This document shows positions 50,607 to 62,631 of a stretch of DNA of 64,000 nt, in pieces (within the stretch, counting starts at the first letter, position 1; each line of letters opens with the position of its first letter). Source of the DNA: an uncultured delta proteobacterium. GTDB taxonomy: Bacteria > Desulfobacterota > Binatia > DP-6. The notes beneath the pieces are model-generated. The model was not told the DNA's origin, ran no database searches, and saw only the letters and a list, made by a program, of their open reading frames with translations. Made by a program: the position numbers and the translations under genes. The stretch is from contig CAWFFN010000012.1 in NCBI GenBank assembly GCA_963815115.1, positions 320,001-384,000 on the forward strand. Reading direction: 5' to 3'.

Positions 50607-51608
50607 TCAGGCCGAGGCCTCGAAGTCCTCGAACTGCAGGATATCCAGCTCGGCGAAGCGCTCGCGCACCCACGGCGTGAGCAGCCCGAGCCGCTTCACG
50701 TTGGGAACGACCTTCGCGAACAGCATCTTGCGGAACTCGATCATCGACGGCGAGTGGAGAACGATGTCCTTCACCTCGTCCACCGGCCAGCCCATGACCT
50801 CCCAGACCTCCTCGGCGAGCAGCCGGTCACGCATCAGCCGGCAGCCCTCGTACACGAACTCCTCGCGCTCGCGCATCTCCTTCGGCGGCATCTCGGCGAA
50901 GTAGTCCTTCAGCGCGATCACCCCGAATGCCACGTGGCGCGCCTCGTCGCGGATCACGTAGTGCAGCAGGTCGGTGAGCAGCGGCTCCGAGCACATCTTG
51001 TGCATGAAGCCGAACGCCGCCATGGCGAGGCCCTCGACGAGGATCTGCATGCCGAGGTACTTCATGTCCCACCGCGAGTCGGTGAGGATCTGGTCGATGA
51101 GCGCCTTCAGATCCTTGTTGATGCGGTAGGGGCCGCCGAGCTTCTCGTTCAGATAGCGCGAGAACACCTCGACGTGCCGCGCCTCGTCCATCACCTGCGT
51201 CGAGCCGTAGAACTTAGCTTCCATCCAGGGTGTGGCGTCGACGATCTGCGCCGTCGCCAGCAGCGCGCCCTGCTCGCCGTGCATGAAGTTCGACAGCAGC
51301 CAGCGGAGCTGCTCGCGCCGCAGCATCCGCACCTCGGCCGGTCCGAGCTTCTCCCAGATGTGCGTTCCGTAGACCGGAATCTGCATGTCGGGGAGATTCT
51401 CGGCCTCGGCGTCGACACCGAGGTGCCAGGCCAGCTGCTCGCTCGCGTTCCACTGGTCGCGCTTGGCCTTCTCGTAGAGGTTGTGCAGATCGCGCCGCAC
51501 CATCTCGTAGTTCCAGCTGTACGCGGTGTTGAACGTGGTGGAGAGGAGCTCGATGTGCTCCTCGCGCTCGTCGTGGGTCGGAACCTGGGCCACGGCACCG
51601 TTATGCAT
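50607..51608 (-). CDS. Ferritin-like di-iron protein (AurF-like family)
   Basis: HGEQGA, DEARH, VEGLA, DEARH; complete ligand set. Confidence 0.85.
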   Translation of the reverse strand: MHNGAVAQVPTHDEREEHIELLSTTFNTAYSWNYEMVRRDLHNLYEKAKRDQWNASEQLAWHLGVDAEAENLPDMQIPVYGTHIWEKLGPAEVRMLRREQLRWLLSNFMHGEQGALLATAQIVDATPWMEAKFYGSTQVMDEARHVEVFSRYLNEKLGGPYRINKDLKALIDQILTDSRWDMKYLGMQILVEGLAMAAFGFMHKMCSEPLLTDLLHYVIRDEARHVAFGVIALKDYFAEMPPKEMREREEFVYEGCRLMRDRLLAEEVWEVMGWPVDEVKDIVLHSPSMIEFRKMLFAKVVPNVKRLGLLTPWVRERFAELDILQFEDFEASA

Positions 51609-52233
51609 GGGGCGATCCTCCCTCGGATTGGTGCGGGCTCAGCCCGCGCAGCGTCAGCGTGATGATGGTGTCGTGGAGCCACTCGATCGGGACGGCCTGG
51701 TGCTCGGTCCACCAGGCGAGGAGCTGGGTCGACATTCCGATGATCGCCTGGGCCGCGATGGCCGGCGCCACCGGGCCGAAAACACCACGCTCGATGCCTT
51801 CGCGGATGGTGGCCTCGGCGTCGAGCGCGAACAGCGCCTGCGCGCGGCGTACCACGTCGTGCCGCGACGCCGTCGGGCCGAAGACCAGCTTGAAGACCTC
51901 GCGGTTCTCCTGGGCGAAGCGACACAGAGCCACGGTGGCCACCCGGGTCTTCGCCACGGGATCGTCCACGCTCTCGCGTGCCTCGTCCACGGTCGCCTTC
52001 AGCCGCGTCGCCGCATCCTCGACCAGCGCATCGTAGAGCGCGTCCTTGGTGGCGAAGTGGAGATAGAACGTGCCGACGCCGACGTCCGCGGCGGCTGCGA
52101 TGTCGGCGATCTTGGTGGCGTGCAGGCCCTTCTCGGCCACGACGCGCGTGGCCGCTGCCAGAAGATCGTCCCGGGTCCGCGCCTTGCGGCGCTCGAAGCG
52201 GTTGTCGACGACCTTCAGTGAGCCAGGGTTCAT
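51601..52233 (-). CDS. TetR/AcrR family regulator
   Basis: TKIADIAAAADVGVGTFYLHFATK; ATG 52233 preferred because ATG 52251 lies inside the predicted -10. Confidence 0.9.
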   Translation of the reverse strand: MNPGSLKVVDNRFERRKARTRDDLLAAATRVVAEKGLHATKIADIAAAADVGVGTFYLHFATKDALYDALVEDAATRLKATVDEARESVDDPVAKTRVATVALCRFAQENREVFKLVFGPTASRHDVVRRAQALFALDAEATIREGIERGVFGPVAPAIAAQAIIGMSTQLLAWWTEHQAVPIEWLHDTIITLTLRGLSPHQSEGGSPHA

Positions 52234-52250
52234 AACTGAATCTTGGTTCA
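52219..52250. promoter_or_regulatory. Tandem palindromic operators TGAACC-N2-GGTTCA (probable TetR sites)
   Basis: TGAGCCAGGGTTCA (52219-52232) and TGAATCTTGGTTCA (52237-52250). Confidence 0.65.
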
Positions 52251-52320
52251 TTTAGCTCGGGATGCCGGATCACGTCAAGGGGGCTGCGCGAAGTATAAGA
52301 CAGCCTCCAGAGAGGAGCCG

Positions 52321-53229
52321 ATGAGGACGCCGCCGCCGTTCCACGAGGGAGAGATTGCCGTGCAGGAGCGCGCCGGCATGCGCCGCATGGCGGCGAAGAT
52401 CGGGACCGGAATCGACGACAGCATTCCGCCGCCGGCGCAGGAGTTCCTTCGCAACCGCTACGTGGTGCAACTCGGCTCGGTCGACCCGCGCGGTGCGGTA
52501 TGGGCCTCGCAGCGCGTCGGACCGCCCGGCTTCGTGACGTGTCCCGACGAGCGCACCGTCCGCATCGAGGCGGCCGACGTGCCGGGTGATCCGCTGCTGG
52601 CGAACCTGCGCGGCAACCAGGCCCTCGGGCTCCTCGCGATCGACCTTCCGACCCGACGGCGCTACCGGGTGAACGGGCGGGCGTCGCTCGAGGGCCGCGA
52701 CGCGATCGTGGTGCGAGTCGATCAGGCCTACGGCAACTGTCCGAAGTACATCCAGCGCCGCGAGCCCGTGGAAGCGCTGGAGGTGCATCCCGGCGAGGCC
52801 GACGTCACGCCCGGAACGTCGCTCGCGGCGGCACAGCGCGGATGGATCGAGCGCGCGGACACGTTCTTCCTCGCGACCGCTCACCCCGACGCCGGGGCCG
52901 ACGTGTCGCATCGCGGAGGACGGCCGGGCTTCGTGCGGGTGCCGGATGAGCGCACCCTCGTCTGGCCGGACTATGCCGGCAACACCATGTTCATGTCGCT
53001 GGGCAACCTCGCCGTGAATCCGCATGCGGGCCTGCTCTTCGTCGACTTCGATGCGGGCACCACGCTCCAGCTGACGGGACGGGCGCGCGTCGACTGGGAC
53101 GCCGGCAGAGCAGCGACCTTCCCGGGTGCGCAGCGGCTGATCGAGCTCGAGGTCGGCGAGACCATCGAGACGCGGCACGCGAGCCCGCTGGGCTGGAAGC
53201 TCGTCGAGCCCTCGCCGTTCAACCCGTGA
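52321..53229 (+). CDS. Tandem pyridoxamine 5'-phosphate oxidase-like FMN-binding protein
   Basis: FHEGEIAVQ, GNCPKYIQRR, DVSHRGGRPGF, PDYAGN; GAGGAG SD. Confidence 0.88.
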   Translation: MRTPPPFHEGEIAVQERAGMRRMAAKIGTGIDDSIPPPAQEFLRNRYVVQLGSVDPRGAVWASQRVGPPGFVTCPDERTVRIEAADVPGDPLLANLRGNQALGLLAIDLPTRRRYRVNGRASLEGRDAIVVRVDQAYGNCPKYIQRREPVEALEVHPGEADVTPGTSLAAAQRGWIERADTFFLATAHPDAGADVSHRGGRPGFVRVPDERTLVWPDYAGNTMFMSLGNLAVNPHAGLLFVDFDAGTTLQLTGRARVDWDAGRAATFPGAQRLIELEVGETIETRHASPLGWKLVEPSPFNP

Positions 53230-53275: not shown

Positions 53276-54259
53276 TCACAGCTCGAGGGTCGGAACGGAG
53301 ACCGGCAGCCCCGTCGCCGCGGAGTGCATGCACGCCTCGGCGATCAGCACGGCGCGTGCGCCGTCCTCGGGGGTCACGGGAGGCCGCTCATCGTGCAGCA
53401 CGAGGCGGGCGAAGGCGCGCACCGCCTCGCGGACCGTGGCCGCCGCTTCGCCGAGGGCCACCGGGGTGCGCTCGAGGCCGCGCACCGTGTGCAGCCAGTG
53501 CTGTTGATGATCGCCGACGATCTGACCGCCGCGGCAGGCCGCGTCGACCAGCCCCGAGCGCCCCGCGGTCGCGCGCGAGCCGCCCACCGCGACCAGCGCG
53601 TCGTTCGACGCGAGCTCGAGGGTGGCGAGGAAGTTGTCCTCGGTGCGGACCGTGACGGCGCGAGCGGTCCGGCACCACACCCGCGTCACCTCGGCGCCGG
53701 TCAGCCAGCGCACCAGGTCGAAGCTGTGCACCCCGGTGTGGAGGAGGATGCCGCCGCCGGAGAGCTCCGGCCGGTCGAGCCAGTCCAGCGGAGACGGCTC
53801 GAAGCGCTGGTTGACGACCAGGGCGCGGAGCGGACCCAGGTCGGCCAGCCGCTCCCGCAGCGCACGCACCACCGTGTTCCAGCGCAGCGTGTGCGCCATC
53901 AAGCACGGGATGCCCGTCGCACGGACGCGCCGGACGATCACCCCGGCGTCGGCACCGCTGGTCGCCAGCGGCTTCTCGATGAGCAACGCCTTGCCGGCCG
54001 CGGCCACGGCCTCGACGATCGGCCGGTGCAGCGCGGGGGGTACGACGGCGACGACGCCCTCCACGGCGGGATCGGCGATCAGCGCATGCCATTCGGCGTG
54101 GAAGCGACACCCGAGCTCGCTCGCCTGGGCGGTGCCTCGCCTTGCGTCGTGACGGCTCAGCGCGACGAGGCGCAGCTCCGGGATGTCCGAACGGATGTGG
54201 TGCAGGTAGCGCTGGCCATGCTTGCCGGCGCCGATCAGGCCGACGGGGAACGGCGGCAT
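53276..54259 (-). CDS. Gfo/Idh/MocA family oxidoreductase
   Basis: GLIGAGKHG, IEKPLA, GGGILLHTGVH. Confidence 0.9.
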   Translation of the reverse strand: MPPFPVGLIGAGKHGQRYLHHIRSDIPELRLVALSRHDARRGTAQASELGCRFHAEWHALIADPAVEGVVAVVPPALHRPIVEAVAAAGKALLIEKPLATSGADAGVIVRRVRATGIPCLMAHTLRWNTVVRALRERLADLGPLRALVVNQRFEPSPLDWLDRPELSGGGILLHTGVHSFDLVRWLTGAEVTRVWCRTARAVTVRTEDNFLATLELASNDALVAVGGSRATAGRSGLVDAACRGGQIVGDHQQHWLHTVRGLERTPVALGEAAATVREAVRAFARLVLHDERPPVTPEDGARAVLIAEACMHSAATGLPVSVPTLEL

Positions 54260-54299
54260 CTAGACGACCGGCACCCGGATGTGGCGCACGGCCGATCCG

Positions 54300-55418
54300 T
54301 CACGCCGCGAGGCGTCCGGCGAGTCCGGAGAGGCGGCTGCGTGTGCTGCGGTCGCCGAGGCCGGCGGCGCGGCAGCGTTCGAGGTAGTCCGCGATCGCGC
54401 CCGCGAACCAGCGGCGGGCGAAGCTGCTGCCGCGCGCCAGCGCCTCCTGCTCGCGGGAGCCGGCCGCCAGGAGCACGAGGGGCTCGAACCACTCGGTGCT
54501 GCCCGCGATGCCGACCACGGTGTGCTCCGTGCGGTCGAGATACTCGTTCAGCACGGCGCTCTTCTCCGGCTGGTGCGCCAGATGGTAGCGGACATGTGCG
54601 ACCCCGTAGGCCACCGAGCGGGCGACGTCCTGGAGCGAGAGCGTGGCGAGCAGGCGATCGGCTCGCGTGCGCGCGAGGGCGGCGAGGGCCCGGTACATGG
54701 CGAGCGCGAAGCTGCCGAGGAGGAGGTTCGTCGCCAGCGAGGCCTCGGGGTAGGTCTCGGCCGAGAGGAGCTCCTTCAGCGCCTGCTCGGCGGATACGCT
54801 CGCACGGCCGAGACCGCGGCCGCTCACCAGGGCCCGCTTGCGACAGGCCTCGACGTGGCGCGCCTCGTCGAACATCTGCACGCAGAGGAAGCTCTTCAGC
54901 TCGAGGAACTCCTGGTTGATGACGAACACCCAGCGTCCGGGCGCCTCCATCGCGACCAGCGCGACCTCCTGGAGCACGGTGCAGAGCTGCGCGACGGCCG
55001 CCTCGCGCAGCTCGTCGGCCGGAGCGACGGGCGCGAGCAGCTCGCTCCACGGCACGTCGACCGCCGGTGCCCAGCGGCGCGCCTTCGCTTCCTCGTAGAG
55101 CGCGCAGACGTTCTCGGACCAGACGTCGCTCTTGCGGTTGATGGTGTAGCCGAGGTCGGGAAGCTTCGGCACCAGCACGCTGCCGCGCGACGCCATGCTG
55201 TTGCGGTTGCGGACCAGCTCCGGAATGGAATCGTAGCCGTAGGGGCCGAGGTTGCAGTCCTCGTAGGTCAGCCCGCGTGCGGCATCCGCCGGCCGCGCCT
55301 GCAGGCGGGCGGTCTCGACCCCGTACCACTCGAGGGTCAGGTTGCCCCCGAGGATGCTCGTCACCAGCTCGATCAGCGCCGGGTCGTCGAAGAAGTCCTT
55401 CTCGGCGTAGTACGCCAT
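54300..55418 (-). CDS. Ferritin-like protein with degenerate di-iron site (putative beta subunit)
   Basis: Paralog of 55419..56537; first DEARH kept, second is DVARS, both helix Glu ligands lost. Confidence 0.8.
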   Translation of the reverse strand: MAYYAEKDFFDDPALIELVTSILGGNLTLEWYGVETARLQARPADAARGLTYEDCNLGPYGYDSIPELVRNRNSMASRGSVLVPKLPDLGYTINRKSDVWSENVCALYEEAKARRWAPAVDVPWSELLAPVAPADELREAAVAQLCTVLQEVALVAMEAPGRWVFVINQEFLELKSFLCVQMFDEARHVEACRKRALVSGRGLGRASVSAEQALKELLSAETYPEASLATNLLLGSFALAMYRALAALARTRADRLLATLSLQDVARSVAYGVAHVRYHLAHQPEKSAVLNEYLDRTEHTVVGIAGSTEWFEPLVLLAAGSREQEALARGSSFARRWFAGAIADYLERCRAAGLGDRSTRSRLSGLAGRLAA

Positions 55419-56537
55419 TCAGGCGGCGGCCATGGTGAGCTCGACCATCTTCCAGAGCCGGGAGCGCTCGCGCCGCTCGGGAAGGCCGCACTTGGCGAGC
55501 CGCTCGAAATACTCCTCGGCCTGCTGGAGCTGGAACATGTTCTGGATGCGGATGCCTTCCGCGATCTGCTCCTTCTTGGTGCCCTTGCCGGCGAGGATGA
55601 TGAACGGCTCCATCACCTCGGTGGCATAGCCGGCCCCGAAGACGAAGTTCTCGGCCTCGTCGAGATGACGATGGATCGTCTCGCGGCGCTCCGGGAAGTG
55701 GTCGAGCACCCATTTCAAATGCTGCATGCCGTAACCCACGTGCCGTGCCTCGTCCTGCATGACCAGCCGGAAGAGCTTCTTGTCGCCGTCGGTGGGTGAG
55801 ACGTACTCGCTGAACCGGAACAGCGTCAGCACCATGCCCTCGGCCTGGAGATGCAGGGTGAGCGACGCCTCGGCGAAGCTGTCGGCGTCGCGCAGGAACT
55901 TGAGATTGTGCTCGTTGTGCTGGCTCGCGCGCATGAGGCCGAAGCCGGTGGAGAGCGCCCGCTTGCGGAAGATCTCGGCGTGGCGCGCCTCGTCCATGGC
56001 CTGCGTGGCGATGAAGTTCTTGACCTCGAAGAAGTCGGCGTTGAGCCGTCCCATCCACTTGGCCGGGACGTCGGTCGCGATCATCTCGACCTCGGTCAGG
56101 AAGGTGAGCAGCTGGGCGTAGGCCTTGCCGATGTCGTCGGGAAGCTCGGTCGCGAGCAGATCGGACCACGGGATGTCGGTGGTCGCGTTCCACTGCCGGG
56201 TCATGGCCTCCTCGTAGTAGCCCTCGAGATTGTAGGCCCAGACCTCGCTCTTGCGGTTGACGTCGGCCTGGAGGTCGGGAAGGCCCTCCGGCTGCTCCGC
56301 GCCGCGCGGCGCGAAGCTCCGATTCTGCCGGATCACCTCGGGCATCTCCGAGTAGCCGTAGCCGGCGACATCGAGGTCGCGGAAGGTGAGGCCGCGGCGC
56401 TCGTTCTGCGGCCGGCAGCGCACGCGCTCGCGCTGGGCGTCGAGCCACGACAGATCGAGGTCGCCCTTCAGCCGGCGCTCGAGGCCGTCGAGAAACGCCC
56501 GGTCGTCGCTGAAGTCGGTGGTGGCGAGGTAGCTCAT
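55419..56537 (-). CDS. Ferritin-like di-iron protein with complete ligand set (putative alpha subunit)
   Basis: WNATTDIPW, TEVE, DEARH, QAEG, DEARH; AAGGAG SD. Confidence 0.85.
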   Translation of the reverse strand: MSYLATTDFSDDRAFLDGLERRLKGDLDLSWLDAQRERVRCRPQNERRGLTFRDLDVAGYGYSEMPEVIRQNRSFAPRGAEQPEGLPDLQADVNRKSEVWAYNLEGYYEEAMTRQWNATTDIPWSDLLATELPDDIGKAYAQLLTFLTEVEMIATDVPAKWMGRLNADFFEVKNFIATQAMDEARHAEIFRKRALSTGFGLMRASQHNEHNLKFLRDADSFAEASLTLHLQAEGMVLTLFRFSEYVSPTDGDKKLFRLVMQDEARHVGYGMQHLKWVLDHFPERRETIHRHLDEAENFVFGAGYATEVMEPFIILAGKGTKKEQIAEGIRIQNMFQLQQAEEYFERLAKCGLPERRERSRLWKMVELTMAAA

Positions 56538-57025
56538 GTGCCGCTCCTTCTGGCGGGCTCGGCCCGACGTGGCGGGGCGGAGCCATCGGGATACGCAAAG
56601 TCGACTCCCGCCGAGAGGTCGAAGAACTCCTGGATGCTCTCGGCGAAGCGATAGAGCTTGTCGTGGCCGTCGGGGTCGTCGTAGCGCACCTGCAGGGACT
56701 CGCCGAAGTGGGTCAGCGTGTTCAGGCTGTGCGCCGCGTCGGCGGCGCCGAGGCGGTGGATGGCGTCGAACATCTCGCGCCACGCCGGCAGCGGGCCCTC
56801 GAGCACGAAGTCGGGAGCCACCCCGTCGAGCCCCTCGCGCACGGCCACGCAGTCGAACACCTCGAAGCCGAGCACGCCCTCGTAGAGCGGCTCGCCGCCG
56901 GCACCGAGCACGCGAACCGCGAAGGTCGTGTCGAAGAAGCCGAGACGCCGGAAACGCTCCTGCGCACCGCGCATCTCTGCACGAAGCGACTCGAAGAAGG
57001 CGAGTGATGGAAAGTGGACGGGCAT
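56534..57025 (-). CDS. SCP2/sterol-carrier-like protein
   Basis: [11 protein letters not shown]-terminus and [15 protein letters not shown] resemble SCP2-like domains; ATGA overlap with next gene. Confidence 0.6.
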
Positions 57026-57166
57026 GCGCACCCCGCGGTGGCGACGACTCCTCGCATCGGATTAGTCCGCCCCGTGCGGACGTGTCAATCGAACGCCGCA
57101 GGGTTGCAACGGGCTCCCCCCGGCGCTAGGAGAGGCCGGACCTCGACCCCCGTCAGGGAGACCGCG

Positions 57167-57520
57167 ATGGCGTACATCATCACCAGACTCTGCCGAGACT
57201 GCCTCGACACCGGCTGCGTGGCGGTCTGTCCCGTCGACTGCATCTACGAGTACACCGGGTCCGATCGCGAGCAGTGGCCGGCCCAGCTCTACATCCATCC
57301 CGACGAGTGCATCGACTGCGGTGCCTGCGAGCCCGAGTGTCCCTGGCAGGCGATCTTCGAGGAGGTCGCGGTCCCCGACGTCTTCAAGGACGACACCCCG
57401 CTCAACTACGCCATGATGGAGCACACCGCCGAGTTCAAGGTCGCGGCGACCAAGAAGGTGGAGCACCCGACGGCGGAGCAGGTGGCGGCCAACAAGGTCA
57501 AATGGGGCTGGTCGGGCTGA
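57167..57520 (+). CDS. Ferredoxin (FdxA-like dicluster)
   Basis: [18 protein letters not shown] ... [12 protein letters not shown]. Confidence 0.93.
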
Positions 57521-58966: not shown

Positions 58967-60424
<1,458 letters not shown>

Positions 60425-60474
60425 GCACACGCCTCCTGCTGTGAGCTACCGCTCGGTCTGTGGGGTCAGTGGGG

Positions 60475-60855
<381 letters not shown>

Positions 60856-60907
60856 CTAATCGAAGGATTCTCCGCTTGTAAACCCGCTCGCTGCACGTGC
60901 TCCTCGT

Positions 60908-62317
60908 TCAGCGCCGCTCCGCCGCAGCGCTTCCTCCGATGGGCTCGTATCCGCCGGCGCTCGCCGCCAGCACGTACGCGCTCTCGCTGTGCTGCGAGAG
61001 GTCGAGGCCCGCGGACTCCGAGTCCTCGTCGACCCGGATGCCGCCGGTGAGCAGCCCGGCGATGCCGAGACACGCCAGCGTCCCGACGATCGCGATCCCG
61101 TACGTGACCAGGATCGCCGCCACCTGCGTGAGCAGGAGACCGGTCTCGCCCGACACCAGGAGGCCCTGCGTGGTGACCGCCGGGTTGATCGACGTCGACG
61201 CCCACAGGCCGGTCGCGATCGCTCCCCATGTCCCGCCCACGCCGTGCACGCCGACCACGTCGAGCGCGTCGTCGTACCAGCCGAGGACGGTTTTCAGGTT
61301 GCACGCTGCGTAGCACAGGACGCCGGCGACGGCTCCGATCGCGAGCGCGGGCATCGGCGCCACGAATCCCGACGCGGGCGTGATCGCGACGAGTCCCGCG
61401 ACGGCGCCGCTCGCGGCGCCGAGGACCGTCGGCTTTCCCCGGCCGATCCACTCCGCGAACATCCAGGCCAATGCCGCCGCCGCCGTCGCGGTGTTGGTGA
61501 CGACGAAGGCGCTCACCGCCAGCCCGTTGGCGGCGAGTGCGCTGCCCGCGTTGAAGCCGAACCAGCCGAACCAGAGGAGCGCGGCGCCCGTCAACACGAA
61601 GGGCAGGTTGTGCGGAGGCATGGGCTCGGAGCCGTAGCCGAGCCGTCTGCCGATGACGAAGGCGCACACCAGCGCGGACACGCCCGAGCTGATGTGGACC
61701 ACCGTGCCGCCGGCGAAGTCGAGCGCGCCCCAGACCTTGCCGAGGAGGCCGCCGGTGCCCCAGACCATGTGCGCCAGCGGGTCGTAGACCAGGGTCGCCC
61801 ACAGGAGGGAGAAGAGAAGGAAGGCGCTGAACTTCATGCGCTCCGCGAACGCGCCGGTCATGAGCGCCGGCGTGATGATGGCGAACATGCACTGGTAGAT
61901 CATGAAGGCCTGGTGCGGGATGGTCGGGGCGTAGTCGGCGTTCGGCTCGAGGCCGACGCTGCGCAGCCCCAGCCAGTCGAGCCCTCCGAGCACGTGCGCG
62001 TGATCGGGACCGAAGGCCAGACTGTACCCCCACAGCACCCACTGGACGCTGATGAGAGCGATCATGATGAAACTCTGCATCAGCAGGTTGAGCACGTTCT
62101 TGCTGCGGACGAGGCCGCCGTAGAACAGTGCGAGCCCGGGGGCGGTCATCATGAGGACGAGCGCCGCCGAGGTGAGCATCCAGGCGGTGTCTCCGGAATC
62201 GATCTTTGGCTCCTCGGCCGCCCAGGCTTGCATGGCGAACGCCAGCACCACGCCGGCCGACACGAGCGCGCCCATCGTCTTCGACGGTAACGTCACCTTC
62301 CTCCTGGGTCCGCGCAT
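60908..62317 (-). CDS. amtB: Ammonium transporter
   Basis: DTAWML..ALV..M..PGLALFYGG, DFAGGTVVH, LLWFGWFGFNAGS, DDALDV..VHG. Confidence 0.96.
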   Translation of the reverse strand: MRGPRRKVTLPSKTMGALVSAGVVLAFAMQAWAAEEPKIDSGDTAWMLTSAALVLMMTAPGLALFYGGLVRSKNVLNLLMQSFIMIALISVQWVLWGYSLAFGPDHAHVLGGLDWLGLRSVGLEPNADYAPTIPHQAFMIYQCMFAIITPALMTGAFAERMKFSAFLLFSLLWATLVYDPLAHMVWGTGGLLGKVWGALDFAGGTVVHISSGVSALVCAFVIGRRLGYGSEPMPPHNLPFVLTGAALLWFGWFGFNAGSALAANGLAVSAFVVTNTATAAAALAWMFAEWIGRGKPTVLGAASGAVAGLVAITPASGFVAPMPALAIGAVAGVLCYAACNLKTVLGWYDDALDVVGVHGVGGTWGAIATGLWASTSINPAVTTQGLLVSGETGLLLTQVAAILVTYGIAIVGTLACLGIAGLLTGGIRVDEDSESAGLDLSQHSESAYVLAASAGGYEPIGGSAAAERR

Positions 62318-62354
62318 AGGTCTTCCCCCCCCTTGGTGCGGAAAAGTAGAGCGG

Positions 62355-62370
62355 AGCAACCGCGGTGCCA
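62355..62370 (-). promoter_or_regulatory. Sigma54 promoter of amtB-glnB-glnA
   Basis: Minus strand TGGCAC-CGCGG-TTGCT. Confidence 0.85.
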
Positions 62371-62432
62371 GGCTGGCCCGCTCCGGCCGCTCCGGAAATC
62401 CCTCGAGAAGTCTCTCGTACGCCGCGAGGAGT

Positions 62433-62468
62433 TGCCCATCACACGAGCATCTGCTCACGGGAAAGGCA
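62433..62468. promoter_or_regulatory. Two NtrC-like boxes TGC-N11-GCA
   Basis: TGCCCATCACACGAGCA (62433-62449) and TGCTCACGGGAAAGGCA (62452-62468). Confidence 0.65.
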
Positions 62469-62631
62469 GCCGTCACGCCCGGCCTTCGCGGAGACGCATC
62501 ATGCCGCCTCGATGAAGCGGGGTGCCGTTGCACCGACGACCGGTGGCTGACGTGGGCGAGCAGCACGGGTAGCGCCCCCTTGAGCACGTTGGCGACCAGC
62601 GTAGCAAGCCCTAGATCCGCCGCCGGGACTC

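Follow-up and report, generated by a model that had tools for sequence, protein, structure and literature searches.

A candidate ferritin-fold oxygenase family with a fixed SCP2-fold partner and a conserved pseudo-enzyme twin, encoded in a Binatia genome

Analysis of a stretch of DNA of 64,000 nucleotides from an uncultured delta proteobacterium of the class Binatia (assembly GCA_963815115.1, contig CAWFFN010000012.1, positions 320,001 to 384,000; G+C content about 70%), from here on called the window, brought out a module of three adjoining genes, which we name X, alpha and beta. X encodes an SCP2-fold protein, alpha a ferritin-fold protein with a complete set of di-metal ligands, and beta a degenerate paralogue of alpha. 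On balance, we favour the reading that the three proteins make up one enzyme and represent a new family of ferritin-fold oxygenases or oxidases, acting on a hydrophobic substrate that is held by a dedicated SCP2 subunit. With similarly measured confidence we commit to a substrate class, that is, to a lipid- or alkane-directed hydroxylase, desaturase or oxidase. A broader proposition can be made tentatively: the module may belong to an unrecognised class of soluble lipid- or alkane-oxidising di-metal enzymes, possibly of the Mn/Fe type as in R2lox, in which a catalytic subunit is joined by a pseudo-enzyme twin and by an SCP2-fold subunit that is obligate and delivers the substrate, and that are widespread in uncultured soil Binatia, Myxococcota, Actinomycetota and Chloroflexota. 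What we rate as new is a ferritin-fold oxygenase family with an unusual fixed set of subunits. An original prediction, made from the letters of the sequence alone, had proposed a heterodimeric di-iron oxygenase system comprising an SCP2-like protein, an active and a degenerate ferritin-like protein, a dehydrogenase and a ferredoxin; its statements on the sequence hold, its interpretation is supported in part, and what became of its parts is told with the results that bear on them.

The AlphaFold2 model of alpha (mean pLDDT 92.3) places the protein in the R2/R2lox/AurF branch of the ferritin fold. Its best Foldseek matches are R2lox, VlmB and the R2 protein of Chlamydia (E 3e-5 to 1e-4), with the R2 protein of Aquifex also among them. 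Every match listed is an R2, R2lox or AurF-like (VlmB-type) protein, and no ferritin, bacterioferritin or Dps is found among the matches listed. The closest structural match is R2lox (PDB 4hr0 and 6i93; E 3e-5, TM score 0.53 by query length and 0.67-0.69 by target length, 18-19% identity), which has the same E/ExxH/E/ExxH ligand layout, and relative to which alpha carries an extra conserved N-terminal region of about 100 residues. VlmB, an azoxy synthase, ranks seventh. When the alpha profile is compared with the sequences of solved structures, the best match is a VlmB homologue (6d9f/8wvr, E 2.5e-5), and R2lox is matched at E of about 0.005-0.009.

Neither alpha nor beta reaches the cut-off of any Pfam or NCBIfam model. 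At a Pfam E value of 0.01, alpha is hit only by DUF455, Ribonuc_red_sm and Rubrerythrin, all below cut-off, and beta by none; at the same threshold neither protein matches the MmoX/phenol-hydroxylase family, PF11583 (the AurF family) or the PaaA/PaaC family. With the NCBIfam R2lox model NF006200, whose cut-off is 194 bits, alpha scores 28.7 and beta 15.6, while the R2-type ferritin fold found by Foldseek and the invariant six-ligand site described below are both as in R2lox. The HMMER alignment of alpha with 6f6f is off register near the first ligand and leaves the Tyr region uncovered, and the residues of the Tyr-Val cross-link are not placeable from it; by simple offset from E151 and E233 in the R2lox numbering, they would presumably fall at A154 and L228. 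Because the sequence models of R2lox, AurF, SCP2, the soluble di-iron monooxygenases (SDIMOs) and PaaA/PaaC are all unmatched, though two of the folds are recognised, we liken the module to R2lox in its working and to the PaaAC and SDIMO hydroxylases in its architecture, and count it as a member of none of them. This agrees with the earlier proposal that the system is new, since no named or characterised family that includes it was found by other means either. The module is not an SDIMO, and the comparison with the alpha and beta subunits of those enzymes that was drawn in the original prediction holds as an analogy only.

Ligand conservation was assessed in an alignment of the window's own alpha and beta with genes of the 72 related loci, 57 of alpha type and 37 of beta type (58 alpha and 38 beta sequences in all). 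Alpha has the motifs TEVE (148-151), DEARH (182-186), QAEG (231-234) and DEARH (262-266), and the ligand residues E151, E183, H186, E233, E263 and H266 are each present in 58 of the 58 alpha-type sequences. The motifs had been read correctly beforehand in both proteins, with one correction to the helix-1 ligand: as position 149, the first glutamate of TEVE, is variously E, Q, S, G, M or T in otherwise ligand-complete members among 75 full-length family sequences, the ligand is the second glutamate, E151. A full E/ExxH/E/ExxH set is the hallmark of O2-activating R2/AurF-type sites, and the invariance of the six-ligand site in a protein of this fold suggests that alpha activates O2 at a di-metal centre.

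The same invariance, with the absence of ferritin, bacterioferritin and Dps from the fold matches listed, makes it quite improbable that the proteins form a non-catalytic ferritin-like assembly, binding lipid or handling iron for storage, detoxification or sensing. Such a role would sit well with the wider family, in which the full ligand set is present in 36 and incomplete in 39 of 75 sequences (the query plus 74 full-length representatives), so that degenerate members are a regular part of it. It would also sit well with the description of the physiological function of R2lox as still unestablished in 2022, in the part of PMC9314684 that was available.

The two proteins of about 372 residues had been called paralogues on the basis of shared motifs, and an identity of 39% over 363 residues (E 8e-91) bears this out. 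At the places aligned with the four alpha motifs beta has QEVA, DEARH, LLGS and DVARS, a loss of four of the six ligands. Among the 38 beta-type sequences the glutamates at positions 151, 233 and 263 are absent throughout (0/38 at each) and the histidine at 266 is kept in a single one (1/38); E183 is retained in 19 and H186 in 29. In the maximum likelihood tree the beta sequences form one clade (38 rows, SH-aLRT 99) and the paired alpha sequences another (55 rows, SH-aLRT 98), while three single-copy actinobacterial proteins group together (SH-aLRT 99). The alpha and beta clades each divide into a Myxococcota-type and a Binatia-type group, which suggests either that the duplication predates the split between these two types or that the module moved as a unit. 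The tree is a quick version, rooted at the midpoint with an AurF-like outgroup on a very long branch, and no direction is claimed from it.

Simple decay of beta had been named beforehand as an outcome that would count against the proposal. The four lost ligands, and branches that are longer for beta than for alpha (for example Myxococcota-type stems of 1.37 versus 0.57), are what a duplicate on its way to becoming a pseudogene might show, but this explanation is very hard to maintain, and we take it as refuted as far as sequence can tell: the reading frame is intact in all 38 beta sequences used, and their alignment has 57 invariant columns with a mean column identity of 65%. Because beta is one old clade, in which the same three ligands are lost in all members, it is classed as an old, conserved pseudo-enzyme and not as a product of decay, and the predicted pairing of an active with a degenerate ferritin-like protein is thus upheld, with an ancient loss of ligands in beta. 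For a paralogue that has lost its ligands but keeps its coupling to alpha, the role of a structural protomer is the best reading.

X is SCP2-like, as first suggested, by fold, while the Pfam SCP2 model is unmatched. Its AlphaFold2 model (mean pLDDT 89.7, from an alignment of 41 rows) has SCP2 entries as all ten best Foldseek matches (E 1.7e-6 to 7.5e-4, TM score by target length at most 0.72), led by 1wfr (E 1.7e-6) and 2cx7 (E 4.9e-6); the SCP2 domain of UbiJ is found lower down, at E of about 2e-3. In sequence the relationship is faint. The X profile reaches the Thermus SCP2 among PDB sequences only at E 0.055, none of the 41 family members matches Pfam SCP2 (PF02036) at E 1, and no Pfam or NCBIfam model is matched by X at its cut-off; Pfam does recognise five canonical SCP2 domains elsewhere in the window's genome. 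The X-family alignment contains 24 invariant columns, including C59, D72, W82, H99, N102, T103, H106, D117, D122, R126 and Q132. Taken with the modelled structure, this makes X a divergent SCP2-fold family with invariant polar residues of its own (those just listed except W82). Gene fusions were set aside as Rosetta-stone evidence for a partnership of X, as only six proteins longer than X with an X-like part were found, all of them singleton clusters. One (P0022) is an in-frame fusion of X and alpha, and the remaining longer X proteins look like deletions or frameshifts. The database protein P0274 combines an X-like part with lipase/thioesterase-like hydrolase families.

The conservation of the gene neighbourhood, proposed earlier as a check, goes beyond chance: the module recurs in the 72 genome loci fetched for the linkage counts, and the family comprises thousands of database proteins (2560 clusters at 90% identity with E <= 0.001, and 817 representatives at 50% identity). 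The only database names seen for it are 'ferritin-like domain-containing protein' and 'hypothetical protein', and its source metagenome-assembled genomes (MAGs) are labelled Binatia, Acidimicrobiia, Dehalococcoidia, Chloroflexota and Actinomycetota. As the caller of open reading frames (ORFs) used for the loci had a GC3 filter and may miss genes at lower G+C, the counts for X, alpha and beta were repeated on six-frame translations. X adjoins alpha in 58 of the 72 loci. Of the other 14 loci, 6 lie at the edge of their contig; the remaining 8 have room for X but lack it beside alpha, and 7 of these 8 genomes carry an X-like gene at another place. Beta was found in 56 of the 72 loci, and 10 of the 16 that lack it are at contig edges. 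The genes run in the order X-alpha-beta in Binatia-type loci, but X-beta-alpha in 12 Myxococcota-type loci; that the three stay together despite this swap supports their being one module. Of 301 genomes sampled evenly from the phylum of the window, 7, all of the window's class, carry both an alpha-like and an X-like gene, and 294 carry neither. In three Binatia-type loci (L032, L033 and L041) a divergent gene that resembles one for a luciferase-like oxidoreductase, judged by eye from its translation, replaces X upstream of alpha; two of these three genomes have an X-like gene elsewhere.

A form without beta also exists. Three genomes of the window's class have a single alpha-like gene (42-48% identical) with an X-like gene immediately after it, and a similar beta-less pair occurs in a Mycobacterium MAG (L066). 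Because such pairs exist, X gives the appearance of an obligate partner of the alpha-type ferritin-fold family, to which some lineages seem to have added beta, a relationship that the original prediction had missed. These pairs, and the retention of all ligands in the single-copy actinobacterial forms (L066, L068 and L069), would equally be expected if alpha and X were the functional unit and beta were dispensable or had a separate role, for example in lipid binding or regulation, instead of being the dimer partner of alpha. We think this improbable, though it deserves to be kept in view, for in the lineages with the three-gene form the absences of beta fall mostly at contig edges, beta abuts alpha without a gap in the window, its alignment spans the whole length of the fold with 57 invariant columns, and it has stayed with alpha through the change of gene order. 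In L066 (2366-7499) the beta-less alpha-like and X-like genes lie directly downstream of [NiFe]-hydrogenase genes, which encode an NAD-binding/Fe-S subunit, a small subunit and a large subunit, and a link of alpha and X to hydrogen or hypoxia metabolism is possible in that context.

The nearest architectural precedent for the module is phenylacetyl-CoA epoxidase (PaaA-PaaC-PaaB; compared here by Pfam), in which a ferritin-fold catalytic subunit is joined by a metal-free homologous subunit and a small third subunit, and the substrate is bound to CoA. PaaC serves as a structural protomer for PaaA, as do the beta subunits in soluble di-iron monooxygenases. The module differs from the epoxidase in that its third subunit has the SCP2 fold and that no PaaE-type reductase lies nearby. 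With SDIMOs of the MmoX/TmoA type it shares the general idea of pairing a catalytic alpha subunit with a homologous beta subunit devoid of metal, but it differs in having no match to their Pfam family, in the R2-type fold of alpha and in its surroundings: as the original prediction had noted for MmoB-type proteins and reductases, no coupling protein or NADH reductase is present among the annotated neighbours (32.8 to 62.6 kb; the genome was not searched for them). R2, R2lox and AurF-type proteins form homodimers, and in the module beta would probably take the place of the second protomer.

R2lox differs from alpha in that alpha is accompanied by a degenerate paralogue and a dedicated SCP2-fold gene, and what is reported of it bears on the choice of substrate. 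According to the part of PMC9314684 available, R2lox co-purifies with long-chain (hydroxy) fatty acids, and in haloarchaea the R2lox gene clusters with ferredoxin, sterol-carrier and sterol-binding genes and is induced by hexadecane (citing Kumar et al. 2020); this published association of R2lox with ferredoxin and sterol-carrier genes had been missed in the original prediction. In the accessible text of PMC10867098, R2lox from Geobacillus lowered alkane amounts in crude lysate, which is modest evidence. A lipid-binding protein that presents an isoprenoid substrate to a hydroxylase is described for COQ7-COQ9 (10.1101/2021.11.15.468694, seen in part). The module would be like COQ7-COQ9 and UbiJ in having a lipid-binding partner for a hydroxylase, with the UbiJ domain among the fold matches of X, and unlike them in that X is unrecognised by the Pfam SCP2 model. 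A role in ubiquinone synthesis was considered and rejected, as the window's genome has no match to the COQ7 family.

An obligate SCP2-fold partner points to a hydrophobic substrate. We propose that X, alpha and beta would be subunits of one di-metal enzyme (Fe/Fe or Mn/Fe), with O2 activated at the carboxylate/histidine site of alpha, beta probably acting as the structural protomer, and X probably holding a hydrophobic substrate, for example one with a long alkyl, acyl or isoprenoid chain, or delivering it to alpha. A general ferredoxin would supply the electrons, the neighbouring FdxA-like gene being one candidate for it in the window's lineage, and in Binatia-type genomes a Gfo/Idh/MocA dehydrogenase would oxidise the alcohol formed. 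What we infer from the patterns above is the assembly of the complex, its metals, its reaction with O2, the lipid nature of the substrate, the source of electrons and the part played by the dehydrogenase.

A different chemistry is suggested by the VlmB-type enzymes, which have both the best profile match and a place among the Foldseek matches. The AurF, CmlI and VlmB enzymes (PF11583) act on amines and are distant kin of alpha; PF11583 is found on 50% of the members of the nearest Atlas cluster to alpha, and an AurF-family paralogue, in which both DEARH motifs align with those of alpha, is encoded 3 kb from the module. The proteins might accordingly be an N-oxygenase or N-N bond-forming enzyme on an amine of secondary metabolism, with X only a scaffold. 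We consider this unlikely, because no biosynthetic cluster surrounds the module, whose neighbours are housekeeping or varied, because alpha misses PF11583 at the threshold given above while its SCP2-fold partner points to lipid, and because such high conservation across classes is unusual for secondary metabolism. For AurF, CmlI and VlmB no degenerate or SCP2 partner is described in those parts of the literature that were examined.

Several points weigh against the lipid oxygenase reading as a whole. The conserved module contains no reductase, and only 11 loci, all from close relatives, have the ferredoxin next to it. The scores of the R2lox and AurF models are far below their cut-offs, and the best profile match of alpha is an N-N bond-forming AurF-like enzyme, not one that acts on lipids. 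The heterodimer and the binding of X are things that we infer; in a complex prediction of alpha, beta and X a control with alpha replaced scored above the real set, a result that speaks neither for nor against binding. Genomes that share these features are kin, so the co-occurrence counts overstate their independence and are to be taken as a pattern, not as a statistical test. Alpha is 74-97% identical among the best 120 database matches and its surroundings are of a housekeeping kind, so a biosynthetic role fits as well as a catabolic one, and as the neighbours outside the module are heterogeneous and largely housekeeping, the context says little on the substrate. The literature searched, from which subscription journals and supplements were largely absent, yielded no paper on the X/alpha/beta family and no experiment on any of its members.

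Some of the most demanding C-H and N oxidations known are the work of ferritin-fold di-metal enzymes, and fresh chemistry continues to emerge from newly found families, of which BioE, reported in 2025, is an example (PMC12704756, seen in part). A fixed partnership with an SCP2-fold protein, often together with a ligand-less twin, yields a clear and testable hypothesis, and the module may show how R2lox-like proteins receive hydrophobic substrates. Should the class of lipid- or alkane-oxidising enzymes proposed above be real, it would provide a genetic handle on the long-open question of the function of R2lox-like proteins, and were the substrate an alkane or a membrane lipid, the family would be relevant to the way in which abundant uncultured bacteria of soil turn over carbon.

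The features of the window discussed here are collected in Table 1. The translational coupling of the three genes that the original prediction had described is found at both junctions. The start of alpha overlaps the stop of X in an ATGA (56537-56534), with a GAAGGAG resembling a ribosome-binding site just 5' of the alpha start, and the ATG of beta (55418-55416) abuts the TGA of alpha (55421-55419). The Gfo/Idh/MocA gene begins 40 bases 3' of beta. Homologues of X begin at the third codon of the listed ORF, and its start was set there. A promoter scan found no promoter-like site and one terminator-like site, a count not above that in shuffled sequence.

Table 1. Features of the window, with positions counted from its first nucleotide.
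Feature	Position	Strand	Description
X	56534..57025	-	163 aa; SCP2-fold protein; listed ORF 57031-56534, start at third codon (57025)
alpha	55419..56537	-	372 aa; ferritin-fold, complete E/ExxH/E/ExxH di-metal ligand set
beta	54300..55418	-	372 aa; alpha paralogue without second metal site, probable non-catalytic partner
Gfo/Idh/MocA NAD(P)-dependent oxidoreductase	53276..54259	-	327 aa; three Pfam domains above cut-off
FdxA-like ferredoxin	57167..57520	+	divergent from X; two cluster motifs; Pfam Fer4 above cut-off
TetR-family regulator	51601..52251	-	PF00440 and PF17932 above cut-off
AurF-family third ferritin-fold paralogue, ligand-complete	50607..51608	-	PF11583
PNPOx-type flavoprotein	52318-53229	+	two matched stretches to PNPOx family; convergent with Gfo/Idh/MocA gene
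Ammonium transporter, PII protein and glutamine synthetase, in a row	58967-62587	-	read from translations alone; beyond TPR gene

Parts of the window are contained in soil and peat metagenome runs, with a share above 0.2 only in the runs labelled X1 (0.33) and X2 (0.21). Some pieces in X1 are identical to the window, and this run may be the sample from which it came. In one metatranscriptome library contigs are 90-95% alike to the window over 55315-55604, across the beta/alpha junction, and over 56232-56647, across the alpha/X junction. These contigs are at most a hint that relatives of the module are expressed, as the library may hold DNA and a contig that spans a junction is not the same as a single transcript.

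The Gfo/Idh/MocA gene was correctly identified at the outset, its protein having an N-terminal Rossmann domain and a C-terminal domain by Pfam (PF01408, 67.1 bits; PF22725, 61.9; PF02894, 57.7), with no NCBIfam equivalog cut-off reached. As a part of the system it fares less well: it follows beta in 23 of the 72 loci, none of them among the 18 of Myxococcota type, which makes it, by its distribution, a lineage-specific accessory of Binatia-type loci. The link proposed between the adjacent ferredoxin and the oxygenase likewise proves weak. The ferredoxin has the cysteine spacing CxxCxxxxCxxxCP plus CxxCxxCxxxCP, a pattern characteristic of 7Fe ferredoxins such as those of Azotobacter and FdxA type, and its score with the NCBIfam FdxA model is below cut-off (83.8 vs 125). 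It is adjacent in 11 of the 72 loci, and since these are all close relatives with wider synteny, sharing also the TPR gene on the other side, the arrangement looks like inherited synteny and not a functional tie. The ferredoxin is a possible electron donor.

Downstream of the Gfo/Idh/MocA gene, the TetR-family regulator weakly resembles FasR and FadR models, with scores short of the cut-off in each case. The AurF-family paralogue that accompanies it scores 37.8 bits with its Pfam model (cut-off 29.6) and is 29% identical to alpha over 225 residues; it may be a second di-iron enzyme of the same pathway as the module. This pair of tetR and aurF-like genes follows the Gfo/Idh/MocA gene in 9 of the 72 loci. 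The PNPOx-type gene sits between the Gfo/Idh/MocA gene and tetR in the window, and is not in this place in the close relatives L001-L011.

A lipase/thioesterase-like alpha/beta hydrolase (Palm_thioest, PGAP1, DUF676) is encoded near the module in 9 of the 72 loci, upstream of X in L004-L007, L024 and L063 and downstream of alpha in L055, L064 and L072, and an enoyl-CoA hydratase in 5; both occur in both lineages. Together with the FasR/FadR-like regulator they are weak hints of lipid. Near the module the window otherwise encodes housekeeping functions, among them glutamine synthetase, PII, an ammonium transporter, a class I tRNA synthetase, an Mrp-type Fe-S carrier and an Smr protein.

Seven of the loci (L029, L031, L038, L041, L048, L053 and L058) come from MAGs titled Klebsiella pneumoniae, Enterobacteriaceae or Spirochaetales. 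Their rows in the tree fall among those of Binatia and Myxococcota, and these labels on contigs with the module are probably errors of binning or labelling.

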